Shown one piece after another: positions 40,496 through 51,826 of a stretch of 64,000 nucleotides of DNA. This stretch comes from Lysobacterales bacterium (GTDB lineage Bacteria; Pseudomonadota; Gammaproteobacteria; Xanthomonadales; SZUA-5): contig JALHMH010000003.1 of NCBI GenBank assembly GCA_022844165.1, positions 132,269 to 196,268 on the forward strand, written 5' to 3'. A program made the translations under genes and the position numbers. The notes under the pieces were generated by a model. That model saw only the letters and a program-made list of their open reading frames with translations, was not told the origin of the DNA and did no database searches. Numbering within the stretch: the stretch's first letter is position 1; each line of letters starts with the position of its first letter.

Positions 40496-41869
40496 ATGAA
40501 CATCTTGATCCTTGGCGCCGGCCAGGTCGGCACATCAGTCGCCGCCGCGTTGGCGCGCGAGTCCAACGACATCACGGTGGTCGATACCGACGCGGAGCGG
40601 CTGCGGGATCTGGCCGAAAAACTCGACTTGCGCGTCGTCCAGGGTTTCGCTGCGCACCCCAGCGTGCTGGCACGCGCTGGTGCGGATGATGCCGATGCGA
40701 TCATTGCTGTGACCTCGTCGGATGAGGTCAACATGATTGCCTGCGAAGTTGCGGCCACGTTGTACAAGACGCCGATGAAAATCGCCCGGGTGCGTGCGCT
40801 CGAATATCTCAAGCATCCTGAGTTGTTCGCGCGTGGGCATGTGTCGATCGACCATTTGATCAGCCCTAGTCAGCGTGTCTGCGATTACATCGAACGCCTG
40901 ATTCAATACCCTGGCGCGTTGCAAGTGCTCGATTTCGCCGACGGCCGCGCGCAACTGATCGCGCTGCGCGCCGATCAGGCCGGAGCGCTCGTCGGCCATC
41001 AAATCCGCGATCTGGCGATGCATTTGCCGGCCGGCAGCGCGGTGCGCATTGCGGCGATCTTTCGCGACAAACGTTCGGTACCGGTCGACGGCGACACGGT
41101 GATCGAACGCGGCGATGAGGTGTTCTTTCTCGCCGATCGCAAGAACATCCGCGCGATGATGGCGGAACTCACGCGTATCGAACGGCCGGCAAAACGCGTG
41201 ATGATCGCCGGCGGCGGCAATATTGGCCTGGATCTCGCACGGCAACTCGAATCGCGTTACAACGTCAAAATCGTCGAGCGCGGCCGCGACCGGGCGCGGA
41301 TCATCGCCGAGCAGTTGGAGAGCGCGATTGTGCTCACCGGCGATTGCGCCGATGAGGACTTGTTGCGCGAAGAGAACATCGATCAAACCGATGTGTTCTG
41401 TTCGCTGACCAACGACGATGAAGCGAATATCTTGTCCGCGATGCTGGCCAAGCGCCTTGGTGCGCGCCGCGTGATTTCCTTGATCAATCGGCCCGCATAC
41501 GCGGAGCTGGTCGAAAGCGGCATGGTCGACACCGCAGTCTCGCCGCAGCAAATCACGCTCGGCGCCTTGCTCTCGTATGTGCGCAAGGGCAATCTGGTGC
41601 GCGTGCACAGTCTGCGCGGCGGCGCTGCAGAAGCCTTCGAGGCAGTGGCTACCGGTTCGAGCGGGACCTCACGTCTGGTGGGAAAGAGCATCGAACAAAT
41701 TCCGTTGCCGTCAGGTGCGACGATTGCCGGCATCGTGCGCGGCGAACGCGTGCTCGCGGCGCATCACGACACCGTCATCGAAACCGATGACCACGTGATT
41801 TTGTTCCTCTCGGATAAGCGCGAGCTGCGGCGCGTCGAATTGCTGTTCCGGGCGGGAGCACTGACGTGA
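40496..41869 (+). CDS. trkA: Trk potassium uptake system NAD-binding protein TrkA
   Basis: MNILILGAGQVGTSVA Rossmann motif, duplicated RCK-N/RCK-C architecture (second IAGGGNIGLDLA). 457 aa. Confidence 0.92.
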   Translation: MNILILGAGQVGTSVAAALARESNDITVVDTDAERLRDLAEKLDLRVVQGFAAHPSVLARAGADDADAIIAVTSSDEVNMIACEVAATLYKTPMKIARVRALEYLKHPELFARGHVSIDHLISPSQRVCDYIERLIQYPGALQVLDFADGRAQLIALRADQAGALVGHQIRDLAMHLPAGSAVRIAAIFRDKRSVPVDGDTVIERGDEVFFLADRKNIRAMMAELTRIERPAKRVMIAGGGNIGLDLARQLESRYNVKIVERGRDRARIIAEQLESAIVLTGDCADEDLLREENIDQTDVFCSLTNDDEANILSAMLAKRLGARRVISLINRPAYAELVESGMVDTAVSPQQITLGALLSYVRKGNLVRVHSLRGGAAEAFEAVATGSSGTSRLVGKSIEQIPLPSGATIAGIVRGERVLAAHHDTVIETDDHVILFLSDKRELRRVELLFRAGALT

Positions 41870-42052
41870 GCGGGGGGATGTGGAGCGGGGCACGGGGCGC
41901 GGGGCACGGGGCACGGGGAGCGGGAAAGTTGTTGTCCGTTGCGAGTAGCCCTGGAGTTCAGCCCAAGAATTGCAGCGCCTGGCCCGCACCCCGTGCCCCG
42001 TGCCCCGTGCCCCGTGCCCCGTGCCGCGCACCCCCCCGTGCCCAGTGCCGCG
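41870..42052. repeat. Inverted arrays of GGGGCAC heptamers (intercistronic trkA-trkH)
   Basis: Five GGGG tracts with 3-nt spacers at 41887-41918. Five CCCC tracts at 41989-42020, plus degenerate GTGCCGC/GTGCCCA units to about 42050. The arms are reverse complements with one mismatch, separated by a 70-nt spacer. Confidence 0.9.
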
Positions 42053-42067
42053 CTCTCGAGGACTCCT

Positions 42068-43543
42068 ATGCCCGCTGAGCACGGCAGCAGCGTCGCGCGC
42101 TGGGCCACGGCGCTGCGCGCGATCGGAAATGTGCAACTGATCGTTGGCCTGACGCTGATTCCCTCGATACTGATTGCATGGTGGGATGGCGATAACTCGG
42201 CACTGCCGTTCATCGAGGCGGCGCTGGCGATGTTTGCTTTGGGCACGGCGCTGATCGTGTTTACCCGCGGCCGACGCGCAGAGCTGCGATTGCGCGATGG
42301 GTTCCTGGTGGTGTCGTCCGTTTGGATTATCTCGGCCTTATTGACACCCTTGCCGTTGATGCTCGGGCCGCCGCATCTGTCCTACACGGACGCGGTATTC
42401 GAAGTTGTGTCCGGGTTGACGACCACCGGCGCTACGGTCATCGTTGGTCTCGATCAATTGCCGCGCAGCGTATTGTTTTATCGCCAGTCGCTGCAGTTCC
42501 TGGGCGGCATGGGCATTGTGCTGCTGGCTGTGGCGATTTTGCCCACGCTGCGCATCGGCGGTTCGCAGTTGACCAAGGGCGAGACCAGTGGTCCCAATAA
42601 AGACGCCAAGCTGACGCCGCGCATCCAGAGCACAGCCGCGGCGCTGTGGTTGATCTACCTCGGATTGAACGCAACCTGCGCGCTCGCGTATTGGATGGGC
42701 GGAATGCAGCCTTTCGATGCGGTGACCTATGCGTTCTCGACCGTCGCGACAGGAGGATTCGGCAACTACGATGCCAACTTCGGCCAGTTCGACTCGCCTC
42801 TCCTGGAGAGCATCGCAATGGTCTTCATCGTGCTCGGCGGCGCGAATTTCGCGTTGCATTTTATCGCCTGGCAACGGGGTTCGGTCGCCGCCTATTTTCA
42901 GGACGTTGAGTTTCGCACGTACGTTCGCTGCCTGCTGTTTTTTTCGGCCATCGTCGGCACATCGCTATACACCACCGGTACCCACGAGGATTGGGCGACG
43001 AGTATCCGGCACGGCGCTTTCCATGTGGTTTCGGTGATGACAACCACCGGCTTCACGACCACCGGATTCGCCGGTTGGCCGGGCTACCTGGCGGCCTTGA
43101 TGATATTGATCGCGTTTTTCGGCGCCTGCGCCGGATCGACCGCTGGCGGGTTGAAAATTGTCCGGATCATGATGACAGCAAAACTGGCTTGGCGAGAAAT
43201 CCTGCGTGTCATTCACCCGCGTGGCCAGTTTGTTGTCAAAATCGGACGGCAAGTCGTGGGCGAACCGATTCTGGCGGCGGTGGCCGGTTTCATCACGGTG
43301 TACATTGGTAGTTACGTCGTGATCGCGTTGTGTATAGCGGCCACCGGGGCCGATCTGATCACTGCGTTTTCTGTCGCCGCGGCATCAATCACGAATTTGG
43401 GGCCGGCGCTTGGCGCTGCTGCCGCGACGGTGCGGGACCTGAACGATGTTGCTGTGTGGTTGTGTTCGGCAGCAATGCTGCTCGGGCGCCTTGAGGTGTT
43501 TACCCTGTTGGTGCTGCTGACGCCGGCATTTTGGCGCGAGTGA
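42068..43543 (+). CDS. trkH: Trk potassium uptake system membrane protein TrkH
   Basis: The internal ATG 42068 lies after the heptamer repeat. Polytopic, with TrkH signatures (SGLTTTGATV, VATGGFGNY, MTTTGFTTTGF). The upstream 43 codons of the ORF are repeat-encoded (PVPRAPCPVPRA). Confidence 0.9.
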   Translation: MPAEHGSSVARWATALRAIGNVQLIVGLTLIPSILIAWWDGDNSALPFIEAALAMFALGTALIVFTRGRRAELRLRDGFLVVSSVWIISALLTPLPLMLGPPHLSYTDAVFEVVSGLTTTGATVIVGLDQLPRSVLFYRQSLQFLGGMGIVLLAVAILPTLRIGGSQLTKGETSGPNKDAKLTPRIQSTAAALWLIYLGLNATCALAYWMGGMQPFDAVTYAFSTVATGGFGNYDANFGQFDSPLLESIAMVFIVLGGANFALHFIAWQRGSVAAYFQDVEFRTYVRCLLFFSAIVGTSLYTTGTHEDWATSIRHGAFHVVSVMTTTGFTTTGFAGWPGYLAALMILIAFFGACAGSTAGGLKIVRIMMTAKLAWREILRVIHPRGQFVVKIGRQVVGEPILAAVAGFITVYIGSYVVIALCIAATGADLITAFSVAAASITNLGPALGAAAATVRDLNDVAVWLCSAAMLLGRLEVFTLLVLLTPAFWRE

Positions 43544-46793: not shown

Positions 46794-47525
46794 TCATTCG
46801 GCTTGATGCAGCGCATCGGGCACACCGAATCTCCCGTCCAACAGCGCCTTGCCGATCACCACCGCCGCTGCGCCCGCCGCACGTAGCGCGCGCAGATCAG
46901 CAAGCGCGTGCACACCGCCGGAGGCAACCAAGTGGGCGTTCGCAAAACGCGCCGCAAGACTGCGATACAGCGCTACATTCGGCCCGCCGAGCATGCCGTC
47001 GCGATCGATGTCGGTGACCAGGAAGTGCCTCGCGCCTTTGGCAAGCCATGCGGCCGTCGTCGATTCGAGATCGGCGGTTTCAAGCTCGGTCCAACCCGCG
47101 GTGGCGATCCGGAACACGCCGCCAGCATCGGCGCGCGCATCGAGCGCCAGCGTAAGGCGCTCGGCGCCGAACTCGTCAAACCATTGCGCGACCAGCTGCG
47201 GCTGTTTGACCGCCAGCGAACCGACGACAACGCGCTCGACACCCGCTTTAAGAAACGCATCGAGTTGCGCGCGTGAGCGCACGCCGCCGCCGGCCTGCAC
47301 GCGCAGACCGGTGGCCACCATGCGTTCGATCACCGCGAGGTTCTCGGTGCTGCCGGTCTTGGCGCCGTCGAGATCGACCACGTGCAACCACTGCGCGCCT
47401 TGATCGCGATACGTTCTCGCCAGTTCTACAGGATCGTTGGCATAGGTTTGCTGCTGCGCGAAGTCGCCCTGCAGCAAACGCACGACGCGCTGGGCGCGCA
47501 AGTCGATGGCCGGGATAATGATCAT
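46794..47525 (-). CDS. hisA: 1-(5-phosphoribosyl)-5-[(5-phosphoribosylamino)methylideneamino]imidazole-4-carboxamide isomerase
   Basis: [43 protein letters not shown] are canonical HisA blocks. Confidence 0.92.
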
Positions 47526-48121
47526 GACATCGCCAGAAAGTTGCGGATCAAACGGGCGCCGACGGCTGAAGAGCGCTCGGGGTGAAATTGCGCAGCCATG
47601 AAGTTGCCGCGGGCCACAATGGCGCAGAACGGCTGGCCGTGCTGGCAGGACGCCAGCGTCAACTCGCTGACCGGCGCGGCAAAGCTATGCACGAAATACG
47701 CGTACGAACGCTCGTCGAGACCGGCGATCAGCGGATGCTCGCGCAATATTTGCAGCGCATTCCAACCCATATGCGGCACGCGCGCCGCAGCGCTGGCTTC
47801 GAGGCGTCGGATCGTGCCATCGAACAATCCCAGGCAGCGCGTCTGGCCACCCTCGTCCGACGTTGAGAATAGCAACTGCATGCCCAGACAAACGCCGAGC
47901 ACCGGCTGCTTGAGCGTTGGCAGACGCGTCGACAAACCCAACGCATCCAACTCACGCATCGCCGCGGCAGCGGCGCCGACGCCCGGCAAAATTACCCGCG
48001 GCGCACGCGCAATCTCGTTCCAGTCGCGCGTCACCGTCACGTGCGCACCCTCGCGCTCGAGCGCGGCGCGCATTGAGCCGATGTTGGCAACGCCGGAGTC
48101 GATCAGGGCGACGGGCGTCAT
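47522..48121 (-). CDS. hisH: Imidazole glycerol phosphate synthase glutamine amidotransferase subunit
   Basis: The internal ATG 48121 gives MTPVALIDSGVANIGS. The catalytic block is GVCLGMQLLF, with FHPERS near the C-terminus. The upstream 34 codons of the ORF lie in the heptamer repeat. Confidence 0.9.
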   Translation of the reverse strand: MTPVALIDSGVANIGSMRAALEREGAHVTVTRDWNEIARAPRVILPGVGAAAAAMRELDALGLSTRLPTLKQPVLGVCLGMQLLFSTSDEGGQTRCLGLFDGTIRRLEASAAARVPHMGWNALQILREHPLIAGLDERSYAYFVHSFAAPVSELTLASCQHGQPFCAIVARGNFMAAQFHPERSSAVGARLIRNFLAMS

Positions 48122-48149: not shown

Positions 48150-48283
48150 GCGGGACACGGTACACGGGGCACGCAACCGCCCCCCCTGGCATTCGAATCA
48201 CATCCGTCGCAACCTCGGGCCATGCTCTGTGTGCCCGGTGCCGCGTGCCGCGTGCCGCGTGCCCCGTGCCCCGTGCCCCGCCT
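48150..48283. repeat. Inverted arrays of GGGGCAC-type heptamers (intercistronic hisB-hisH)
   Basis: Left arm GGGACAC GGTACAC GGGGCAC (48152-48172). Right arm is seven units, GTGCCCG GTGCCGC x3 GTGCCCC x3 (48231-48279). The spacer is about 55 nt. It uses the same repeat unit as the trkA-trkH element. Confidence 0.85.
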
Positions 48284-49451: not shown

Positions 49452-50516
49452 TCACGCCAGCACGCGACCCACTGCTTCCAGAAACTGATCGTTTTCGACA
49501 GGCGATCCGATCGTCACCCGCAAGCCGCCAGCGAGCTTCAAATAGTGCGATACGTCGCGGATCAGTACGCCCTGATCGGCCAGTTGATTCCAGATCGACC
49601 TCGCGTCATCCACCTGGAATGCCAGGAAGTTGGCGCGACTGGGCCATACGCGGCGTATGTCGCGTATGCCCGTCAGTGCTCCGTAGACGCGCTCGCGTTC
49701 CTGCACGGTTGCAGCAATGCGCGCCTGATGCTCGTCGCGAACCGCGAGCGCCTTCAGTGCCGCATCGACGCAGGGCGTCGGCAGTGGATAAGGCGCCATG
49801 ATCCGGCGCACGAGGCCAATGATCTCCTCGTGTGCGATCAGCGTACCCAGGCGCGCGCCCGCTAAAGCGTATGCCTTCGACATCGTGCGCAGCACGCAGA
49901 CGTGCGGATAGCGATCGATCAGGCCCACGGCGCTCTCGCTTCCGGCGTATTCCAGATAGGCTTCGTCGACCACCACGAGCGCGCGACCGGCCAGCGCGGC
50001 TGCCAATCGTTCGATATCCGCAAGCGGCACCCGCGAACCCGTCGGATTGTTCGGGGTGCACACGTAAACCAGCTTCACCGGCGCTGCGAGCGCTGCGGTG
50101 ATCAGTCGGTCGACATTGAGGCGAAAGTCGGTATCCGCTGTCAGCGGCTCGCTGATGACGCTGGCGCCTTGCACGCCGGCTGCCACTGCGTACATCCCGA
50201 AGGTGGGCGGCGAGATCAGCACCGCGTCTTGCCCGGCGCGACAGAAGGCGCGCGTCAACAAATCGATGGCCTCATCGCTGCCGCGGCCGACGAACACGCA
50301 TTCGGGGCGGGTGCCGTATAGCGCTGCCAGTGTATCCATCAAGGAGCGCGGTTGCGGATCGGGATAGCGATTCAAGCCGAGCAGATCGCCGACAAAAGGC
50401 AACGTTGGCGACTCGTTGGCGTTCAACATCACACTCGCCCGGCCCGCCTCCAGGCGCGCCGAGCTGTAGGCTTTCAGCGTCAGCAGCTCGGGCCGTGCGA
50501 GCGCCAATACGCTCAC
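49452..50516 (-). CDS. hisC: Histidinol-phosphate aminotransferase
   Basis: The GTG at 50516 overlaps the hisD stop (GTGA) and gives [21 protein letters not shown]. Also LNANESP, the PLP lysine context [12 protein letters not shown], and VCTPNNPTG. The 617-aa ORF upstream part is out-of-frame read-through across hisD. Confidence 0.9.
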
Positions 50517-51826
50517 GGGCGACCTTCCTGTGCGATCGCCGTCAGGCGTACCTGAACGGCAAGCGCGTGTGCCTCCAGACCTTCCGCTTCGGCCAGCGTG
50601 ATGGCGGCGGGGCCTACGGCTCTGAGTCCCTCTGCGCTGGCCTCCTGTACGGTGACGAGCTTTTGAAAACTCTGCACCGATACGCCGCTCAGCGTGCGCG
50701 CATGCCCGTTGGTTGGCAGCACGTGATTGGTGCCGCTGGTGTAGTCGCCAAGCGACTCGGGTGTGTAGCGGCCCAAGAACACTGACCCGGCGTTTTCGAC
50801 ATTCAACAGCAGGCGCCGTGGATCGGCGACATTCAAGATCAGATGTTCCGGCGCGTAGTCGTTGGCGATGGCTACCGCCTCTTCCAGCGAATCGACGCAG
50901 ATCGAGCGGCTGTGGCGCAGCGCCTGACGGGCAATATCGGCGCGCGGCAGGGTTTCGAGCAAATCGTCGATCGCTTCGACCACGCTGTCGGCCAGTTCGC
51001 CACACGGGCTGAGCAACAGCACCTGCGAATCCGCGCCATGTTCGGCCTGGCTGAGCAGATCGGCAGCGACAAAGCGTGCGTTTGCGGTGTTGTCGGCGAT
51101 GACCAACACCTCCGAGGGTCCGGCCGGCATATCGATCGCGGCACCAAAACTCTGCTGCGAGACCTGCAGTTTGGCCTCCGTGACGTAGCTGTTGCCGGGC
51201 CCAAATATCTTCGCCACCCTGGGTACGCTCGCCGTGCCATAGGCCATCGCCGCAATCGCCTGCACGCCGCCGAGTTTGTAGATCTCGCGGATGCCGCACG
51301 ACCATGCCGCATACAACACCGCCGGATCGATGCTGCCGTCCTTACGCGGCGGCGAACACAAGGCGACACGTCTGCACCCAGCCAGGCGCGCGGGTACGCA
51401 CAACATCAAAGCGGTCGACGGCAATGGCGCTGTGCCTGCGGGCACATACAGGCCGACGGCGGATATGGGCAGCGGCAGGCGCTCGCACATCAATCCTGGC
51501 GCCGTCGACAAGGCAATGGGGTGGGGGCGCGTTTCGCGGTGGAAGCGCTCGATGCGGATGCGTGATTCGTCGATTGCCTGCTTGAGTGCGCCGGGCAGCG
51601 CCGCTTCCGCAGCTGCGAACTCCGCGTCGTCGACGCGGAACGCACCGATCTCGACACCATCGAAGCGTCGCGTCAACGCACGCAGCGTGGAATCGCCATC
51701 GCTGCGGACCTGCGCCAGCAATCGTGCCACTTGTTCCTTGAGATCGGCGCTGGACAGGCCTTCTGGGCGGGCAAGGGCTTGCGCACGCTCTGCGGCGTTC
51801 AAGGTAGACCAGGTCAGGCGTTTCAT
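50513..51826 (-). CDS. hisD: Histidinol dehydrogenase
   Basis: 437 aa. [43 protein letters not shown] are canonical HisD blocks. Confidence 0.93.

Follow-up and report, generated by a model that had tools for sequence, protein, structure and literature searches.

The trkA-trkH Gap

The analysis covered a stretch of 64,000 nucleotides from a Lysobacterales bacterium (GenBank assembly GCA_022844165.1, contig JALHMH010000003.1, positions 132,269 to 196,268), which is called the window here. Within it, the genes trkA and trkH of a K+ transporter operon were separated by a gap of 198 nt, and this gap was filled by inverted arrays of GGGGCAC-type heptamers. The repeats were located with Tandem Repeats Finder (TRF) and an inverted-repeat search, and the site had the following features:

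40496-41869, + strand: trkA (457 aa), NCBIfam TrkA equivalog, E = 1.5e-198; stop codon TGA at 41867-41869
41872-41924, + strand: G-arm (5' arm) of the inverted repeat, read from the sequence; TRF period 7, 4.7 copies; 35 G in 53 nt
41925-41982, + strand: central spacer (loop) of 58 nt, unique sequence with small internal stems
41983-42035, + strand: C-arm (3' arm) of the inverted repeat; TRF period 7, 5.3 copies, 100% matches; 33 C in 53 nt
42036-42051, + strand: degenerate trailing units, CC, GTGCCCA (42038-44) and GTGCCGC (42045-51), read from the sequence; weaker inverted matches
42058-42062, + strand: GAGGA, Shine-Dalgarno-like, 5 nt before the trkH ATG, read from the sequence; outside the long hairpin and not paired to the main stem in the fold
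42068-43543, + strand: trkH (491 aa), NCBIfam TrkH, E = 1.1e-130, with the profile match starting at residue 17

The core of the G-arm (41887-41918) began 17 nt past the trkA stop codon and consisted of GGGGCAC, GGGGCGC, GGGGCAC, GGGGCAC and GGGG, followed by AGCGGG(AAAG). The core of the C-arm (41989-42020) was made of four CCCCGTG units and a CCCC, and continued into GTGCCGC (42021-27) and GCACCCCC. The two cores lay 70 nt apart (41919-41988), and the last C-type unit stopped 16 nt short of the trkH ATG at 42068. All the positions of arrays, spacer and degenerate units that had been given in an earlier note on this DNA were confirmed by the sequence and agreed with TRF. The same note had proposed a stem of about 32 bp with one mismatch. 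The long hairpin was upheld, but the arms measured 53 nt each and were 85% complementary, and the mismatch (GGGGCGC opposite GTGCCCC) becomes a G-U wobble in RNA. As had also been stated, each arm matched a G-quadruplex (G4) motif, and RNA of either strand reads the G-arm first.

An 18-nt pattern of two and a half units had 15 matches in the window, when 0.09 were expected from shuffling. Both the repeat and the palindrome were real and far beyond chance.

The trkH start was supported by a 492-aa call in a sister genome (L124). It was also observed that open reading frame (ORF) callers read through the C-arm and so lengthened TrkH by some 40 residues, giving 534 aa (41939-43543) instead of 491 in the window, and that a gene caller overextended TrkH in the same way in another sister genome (L121, 5486-7084, 532 aa). 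This extension was a false N-terminus rich in proline, valine and arginine, just as the earlier note had warned.

A Second Copy in the his Operon

A second inverted heptamer element was found at 48150-48281, in the 184-nt gap between hisB and hisH of a minus-strand operon. The features of this site were:

47522-48121, - strand: hisH, NCBIfam
48150-48174, + strand: degenerate G-arm (GCGGGACAC GGTACAC GGGGCAC GC), 25 nt, 88% complementary; 29 nt from the hisH start codon
48175-48230, + strand: unique spacer of 56 nt, with no more than chance words in common with the fetched loci by BLAST
48231-48281, + strand: C-arm of seven GTGCCSC units; TRF period 7, 7.1 copies; ends 24 nt from the hisB stop codon
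48306-49367, - strand: hisB (bifunctional), NCBIfam

On the transcribed minus strand, the C-arm of this copy is a G-arm that follows directly after hisB. The minus-strand RNA folded at -119.5 kcal/mol (z = -6.6). Apart from the trk and his copies, the 64 kb contained no long inverted repeat.

In the same region, a 617-aa ORF was noted at 49452-51305 on the minus strand, of which the HisC profile covered residues 271-614 only. Rather than a fusion, it is probably the product of naive calling, extended upstream across the end of hisD.

Several known classes of elements were tried for the two copies and rejected. An intrinsic terminator did not fit, as no U tract and no terminator-like site were present and the sequence past the stem read GCGCTCTCGAGGACTCCT. 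A CRISPR array has repeats of 24-48 nt and spacers of similar size, whereas the period here was 7 nt and there were no spacers. The earlier note had excluded both of these classes on the same grounds. The arms of the element could pass as terminal inverted repeats; a miniature inverted-repeat transposable element (MITE) was nevertheless rejected, as the cores of the window copies resembled neither each other nor any fetched locus and no flanking direct repeats were seen. The window copies were also different from the palindrome of 20-40 nt with a GTAG/CGTC tag that defines repetitive extragenic palindromes (REPs), bacterial interspersed mosaic elements (BIMEs) and the REP doublets known as REPINs. 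A search of the whole window against Rfam 15 at gathering scores returned no match.

The Same Junctions in Related Genomes

The flanks of the trk site were syntenic with those of the relatives, trkA being followed by trkH. The junctions compared as follows, with the TrkA identity to the window given first:

Window: TrkA reference; 198-nt spacer between trkA and trkH
L121 = L122 = L123: 96% protein, about 85% DNA; 231-nt spacer
L124: 96% protein, about 85% DNA; 129-nt spacer
P0006 contigs: 83%; 4-nt overlap (CTATGAAG)
P0010 contigs: 79%; 4-nt overlap
P0009 contigs: 83%; 15-nt gap

The central spacer of the window could be aligned, in part, only with the sister-species spacer. The L121-type spacer was identical in three independent assemblies and carried degenerate G-units (GGGGCGG, GGGGCCG and GGGGCAG) and C-units (CACCCCT, CGCCCCT and TGCCCC). 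The spacer of L124 had few G-units and no C-arm, and its fold was near chance (z = -1.8). In the comparison of spacers, which the earlier note had proposed, the sister species do have a spacer, but the arms had strongly diverged or were half lost, and in the outgroups the junction was short or overlapping. A different arrangement was observed in L125-L127 (5374-8312, TrkA 83%), where trkA was followed by two tandem TrkH genes (494 and 482 aa) versus one in the window.

The hisB-hisH junction, of 184 nt in the window, was a 4-nt overlap or shorter than 10 nt in most of 74 metagenome relatives. It also overlapped in the HisB relatives at 78% identity, and no HisB homologues closer than 79% were found. 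In other lineages, unrelated hairpins of 90-205 nt occupied the hisB-hisH junction (L133, 2559-2666; L166, 2562-2768; L129, 2562-2654; L151, 2530-2646), two of them with GTAG-tagged REP-like stems. Palindromes have colonised operon junctions repeatedly.

The simplest history suggested by these junctions is that the elements entered translationally coupled overlaps, that the trk copy dates to the ancestor of the species group, and that its arms changed fast. On this evidence, the trk element arrived recently.

A Dispersed Family of Paired Arrays

One representative genome per species was scanned for three GGGGCAC units, which gave at least 120 stretches. All counts in this section were made among the matches listed. 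Many stretches lay on several contigs of a few metagenome-assembled genomes (MAGs) of Lysobacterales/Rhodanobacteraceae, and the remaining ones were single arrays in Streptomyces and scattered other taxa. Hence, the search for more copies that the earlier note had proposed turned out positive, both in the his operon and in related genomes.

The Lysobacterales loci shared one build: (GGGGCAC)n, GGGAAAGGCT, a core, AGCCTTTCCC and (GTGCCCC)n. The G-first arrays differed between taxa in the following properties:

At least 2 complementary units within 260 nt: Lysobacterales 22/47, other taxa 2/97
GGGAAAGGC-like sequence after the array: Lysobacterales 23/47, other taxa 1/97
Palindrome GTCCAGAC-TT-GTCTGGAC enclosed: Lysobacterales 18/47, other taxa 0/97

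The enclosed palindrome was a GTAG-tagged REP. A reverse polarity, with the C-array before the G-array, was seen in none of 51 cases in the related MAGs. A conserved half-element, (GGGGCAC)n-GGGAAAGGCT-ACGGGCTT-GGGCTYTTGTAGGTCCAGACTTGTCTGGACGCT, was present in 17 copies in at least 4 MAGs. In it, a linker connected the array to a GTAG-tagged REP whose tag faced outwards, and two such halves faced each other as in a REPIN. No description of a composite of heptamer array and REP was found in the literature searched. In the related MAGs, the linker was also recorded in the form GGGAAAGGCT-ACGGGCTT-GGGCTYTT, joining the arrays to the GTAG-tagged REP GTAGGTCCAGACTTGTCTGGACGC. Loci of this kind were L016, L032, L037, L039, L040, L051, L055 (e.g. 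1491-1680), L060, L071, L075, L084, L088, L102, L103 and L113.

The position of the arrays followed a single rule: in the related MAGs, the gene nearest to every scorable array was the one lying 5' of its G-rich strand. By a rough flank-by-flank test of codon positions, about 18 of the family copies stood between co-directional genes, 6 between convergent and 2 between divergent ones.

The unit variants often differed between paired arms; for instance, GGGGCAC was faced by GGGGCAG (L001), GGGACAC (L016) or GGGGCTC (L010). Each array thus homogenises independently, as slippage would lead one to expect, and exact pairing between the arms is not maintained.

Some other arrays were recorded in the same loci. 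Arrays of 6-7 nt units were nested outside or beside the GGGGCAC arrays, for example (GGTTGTC)n paired with (GACAACC)n on the other side, (GATCACC)n, (CTGACCC)n, (GAGCCCC)(AAGCCCC)(AGCCCC)n and, in Coralloluteibacterium, (CCCTAAG)n. They were found in L071 (6085-6128 and 6494-6520), L051 (7081-7130), L103 (4269-4310), L035 (1240-1262), L010 (4932-5030) and L118 (70-130). In general, intergenic heptamer arrays in mirrored order seem to arise readily in the related genomes. Streptomyces (L017, L018, L046 and L098) and other phyla, including Bacteroidales (L008, L045 and L114), also had perfect GGGGCAC arrays, the longest with 16 units, and the loci outside Lysobacterales spanned L003-L120. These arrays were mostly unpaired, with a partner in 2 of the 97, and had no linker motif.

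Hairpin versus Quadruplex

Hairpin and G4 were compared in ViennaRNA, with G-quadruplex energies switched on. The 216-nt RNA of the trk gap folded at -146.9 kcal/mol (z = -8.1 against dinucleotide shuffles). With G4 energies, the best fold of the full element was, for both strands, a hairpin that contained no G4 (-144.8 kcal/mol). The predictions for shorter pieces favoured the G4, both for the G-arm alone (-38.2 vs -10.4 kcal/mol) and for the G-arm with the spacer (-65.0 vs -52.6 kcal/mol). Since the full-length RNA folds as a hairpin, the G4 is predicted to be possible only as a transient co-transcriptional state, existing while the 70-nt spacer and the C-arm are being made. The reading of the earlier note was supported in part: the predicted hairpin was very stable and the isolated G-arm was predicted to prefer a G4, but the full RNA had none. 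No terminator-like site and no U tract were found in a scan of 41500-42400, and no promoter-like site was found in the trk gap.

The earlier note had proposed a switch that controls trkH relative to trkA. In the version weighed here, the nascent G-arm either forms a K+-stabilised G4 or pairs with the C-arm, and the choice sets the level of trkH against that of trkA. The G-arm fits a motif of four GGGG tracts with N3 loops, is predicted to form a G4 when alone, and is transcribed about 70 nt ahead of its partner. In vitro, K+-dependent G4s were formed by related heptamer oligonucleotides (PMC4692102). That the element lies in an operon for a K+ transporter was also suggestive, as it would be a K+-sensing device. 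However, the same element occurred in the his operon and in many unrelated contexts in related genomes, relatives with a TrkA identity of 79-84% lacked it at their trk junction, and in the sister species the arms of the element had diverged or were half lost. Moreover, the full-length fold was the hairpin by more than 100 kcal/mol. A switch specific to trk is thus very unlikely, and in the preferred explanation the trk genes have no purpose-built regulator in this element.

There is a similarly slim chance that the G-first build itself is functional, with a nascent K+-stabilised G4 preceding the C-arm. In that case the K+ level would decide whether the C-rich arm is single-stranded, and open to Rho or ribosomes, or locked in the hairpin, and trkH expression would respond directly to K+. 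A broader version of the same idea sees a new REPIN-like mobile class with heptamer arrays as outer arms. Its G-first polarity would be selected, letting the elements colonise operon junctions without polarity.

Assembly of the Element

The trk locus was present in drinking-water metagenome runs, and the nearest named relatives of its TrkA were those of Chiayiivirga and Pseudomarimonas, at about 68% identity. An exact look-up of this TrkA among public contigs gave no record, and no RNA run was found for the locus. The short-read unitigs of the source runs ended at 41862 and resumed at 42023, so the element was a short-read breakpoint. A search with the central spacer alone found it in no indexed run, and the short-read unitigs, which break at the arrays, showed no polymorphism of unit number. 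A 37-nt perfect-array unitig, (GTGCCCC)5, was present in the source metagenomes at 4-14x the depth of the flanks and with many different flanks.

These breaks, together with the missing spacer, raised the question of an assembly artefact, in which the palindrome or the unit count would come from a mis-assembly of the metagenome. Against it, the flanks were syntenic, the sister spacer recurred in its three assemblies, the same architecture was found in many independent MAGs, and a loss of Illumina coverage is expected at GC-rich palindromes. The chance of an artefact was judged close to negligible. Because the short-read contigs break at the arrays and the spacer is in no run, the exact number of units rests on the window assembly alone.

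Proposed Origin and Action of the Element

Based on the anatomy, the multiple copies, the architecture and polarity of the family, its lack at the junctions of outgroups and the speed of its divergence, all of which were observed, it was concluded that the trk element is probably one copy of a lineage-specific, dispersed and invasive family of intergenic palindromes, transcribed within operons as a long hairpin. A member of the family would consist of a G-array, a unique or REP-containing core and a complementary C-array.

We proposed that trkA and trkH once overlapped and were translationally coupled, that a copy entered their junction in the species group's ancestor, and that each arm has since grown, shrunk and homogenised alone by replication slippage. 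The element would be transcribed within the trkA-trkH mRNA and fold into a G-C hairpin of more than 50 bp, a G4 of the G-arm being possible just for the short time until the C-arm has been transcribed. It is certain that trkH was uncoupled from trkA translation and starts from a Shine-Dalgarno sequence of its own, immediately 3' of the stem. The hairpin may block 3'-to-5' exonucleases or offer a target for RNase III, and the upstream cistron would be favoured (trkA over trkH, hisB over hisH). By analogy with REP/BIME elements, a generic effect on mRNA that does not stop read-through is likely. The genes hisH, hisA and hisF are needed. Because they lie downstream of the second copy, and because no promoter-like site was found in the trk gap, the element was not considered a strong terminator.

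A weaker termination was weighed separately. In this explanation, the hairpin acts as a factor-independent or Rho-assisted attenuator, which stops some RNA polymerases despite the missing U tract and so lowers trkH and hisH-hisF. The stems were very stable, and about 6 of 26 family copies lay between convergent genes. As the element reads the same on both strands, an attenuator could act both ways at such sites. Elements of the BIME type have been reported to attenuate transcription (cited in PMC3733652), and transcript ends of Xanthomonas were enriched at G4-capable repeats (PMC4692102). On the other hand, there was no U tract or terminator-like site, both window copies sat inside operons with downstream genes that must be expressed, and the gap offered no promoter-like site for a restart. 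Attenuation as the main role is unlikely, although partial termination is compatible with the data, partly overlaps with the preferred explanation of an invasive, transcribed palindrome, and may coexist with it.

It was also considered that the element works on the level of DNA, where the arrays would bind a protein (of the nucleoid, gyrase or IHF type) or form a cruciform or G4 DNA, and the RNA would be irrelevant. The 7-bp periodicity and strict polarity do resemble arrays of binding sites, and REPs and BIMEs bind several proteins (PMC2817692). Yet the number and sequence of units varied freely between copies and arms, no known protein was a candidate, and nothing in the window tied the arrays to a DNA transaction. 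We regarded this explanation as highly improbable.

Several points weigh against the proposed dispersed family and its effects. Only 2 copies could be counted, within the 64 kb of the window. Both lacked the GGGAAAGGCT-REP module and a common core. The REP of the related MAGs had 0 matches in the window at up to 3 mismatches, and by BLAST the spacers of both copies shared only chance words with each other and with all fetched loci. The orientation census was not clearly different from the background. The spacer of L121 folded well (z = -5.1), and both G and C arms persist there at the trk site, which could mean some selective maintenance and not pure neutrality. Finally, we infer the transcription, the hairpin in vivo, the effects on mRNA and the mode of spread from the arrangement of the sequences.

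The conserved array-linker-REP module of the related MAGs suggests that the spread of the dispersed family may be REPIN/RAYT-like (RAYT, REP-associated tyrosine transposase). The fixed polarity, and the fact that the junctions overlap in relatives, indicate that inverted pairs insert into translationally coupled genes and split them. In practice, elements of this kind cause gene callers to overextend TrkH and short-read assemblies to break.

Comparison with Known Systems

With intrinsic terminators, the trk element shares a GC-rich hairpin directly past a stop codon. Its stem of about 50 bp and loop of 58 nt differ from the 5-20 bp and 3-8 nt of terminators, and it lies inside operons.

Multi-copy intergenic tandem heptamers are also represented by the short tandemly repeated repetitive (STRR) sequences of heterocystous cyanobacteria and the TAACTGA repeats of Beggiatoaceae (PMC4679880). 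A post-transcriptional role with no proven function has been suspected for them (PMC4679880 for Beggiatoaceae). Unlike the arrays found here, they belong to other phyla, have other units and consist mainly of direct arrays. Nostoc has few inverted pairs, and a Beggiatoaceae genome had one indirect repeat versus 169 direct sets (PMC4679880).

The likeness to REP, BIME and REPIN elements, drawn in the earlier note for intercistronic REP/BIME, was found to hold. Such elements were reportedly described as GTAG-tagged extragenic palindromes by Higgins, by Newbury, and by Bertels and Rainey in 2011. They are transcribed within operons and are credited with mRNA stabilisation and attenuation. The family found here is likewise extragenic, dispersed and palindromic, lies at intercistronic junctions and turns over quickly, and its transcription is presumed. 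In the related MAGs, the arrays bracket a head-out REP doublet. The window copies differ in having no REP palindrome and no GTAG-tagged stem, and their arms are simple-sequence arrays instead of a fixed palindrome of 20-40 nt. The sole GTAG in the trk spacer (41946-41949) had no palindrome after it. Heptamer arrays are not mentioned in the survey of GTAG-tagged REPs by Di Nocera et al. 2013 (PMC3733652), which cites the report on BIME attenuation. A further description of such elements is that of Nunvar et al. 2010 (PMC2817692).

The closest system was the G-rich heptamers of Xanthomonas, GGGAATC / GGGANTN, described in X. campestris and X. axonopodis pv. citri by Rehm et al. 2015 (PMC4692102; the source for this whole paragraph). 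There are 183-186 of them per genome, with 2-26 units, and about 90% are intergenic. Each genome has 70-75 inverted pairs in convergent orientation, the G-rich strand coming first. Almost without exception, the ORF on their 5' side is nearer (28 nt on average) than the downstream one (160 nt). Co-directional genes flank most of them, divergent pairs being rare, and 83% are positionally common to both species, with varying length and sequence. They form G4s in vitro, K+-dependent as oligonucleotides, and most are transcribed; starts or stops of assembled transcripts coincide with G4-capable repeats more often than with control ones. Their function is unknown, the authors saw no association with mobile elements, and among gamma-proteobacteria they were reported only for Xanthomonas.

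The window arrays share with these repeats a tandem G-tract heptamer of at least 2 units (14 bp or more), an intergenic position near the ORF that lies 5' of the G-rich strand, and, in both copies, inverted pairs with the G-arm first. The host of the Xanthomonas repeats belongs to the same bacterial order as the window organism. The unit is different, being GGGGCAC/GGGGCGC, and the element is for this reason not a strict member of the Xanthomonas class by its search rule. The host also differs, being an uncultured drinking-water member of Lysobacterales, as does the link of the arrays to a GTAG-tagged REP doublet in the MAGs related to the window. A literature search found no paper on a GGGGCAC array and no follow-up of Rehm et al. 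2015. The earlier note had seen no described repeat family for the element, a statement that no longer stands, as the element can be placed beside the Xanthomonas heptamers with their inverted pairs and the same position rule (PMC4692102). Its proposed trk switch fell for the reasons given above.

Apart from the unit sequence, the listed features of the Xanthomonas repeats matched the family found here, with many copies in the related MAGs and with transcription and the G4 as predictions. By this analogy, the trk element is probably of the same kind as the inverted GGGAATC pairs and behaves like REP/BIME/REPIN elements. In Xanthomonas, few non-coding features are more abundant than the G-rich heptamers, whose function is still unknown. 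The phenomenon is wider than Xanthomonas and extends, with the different unit GGGGCAC, to uncultured Lysobacterales, where the linker to a GTAG-tagged REP doublet, absent from the original description, points to an origin of the REPIN/RAYT type.

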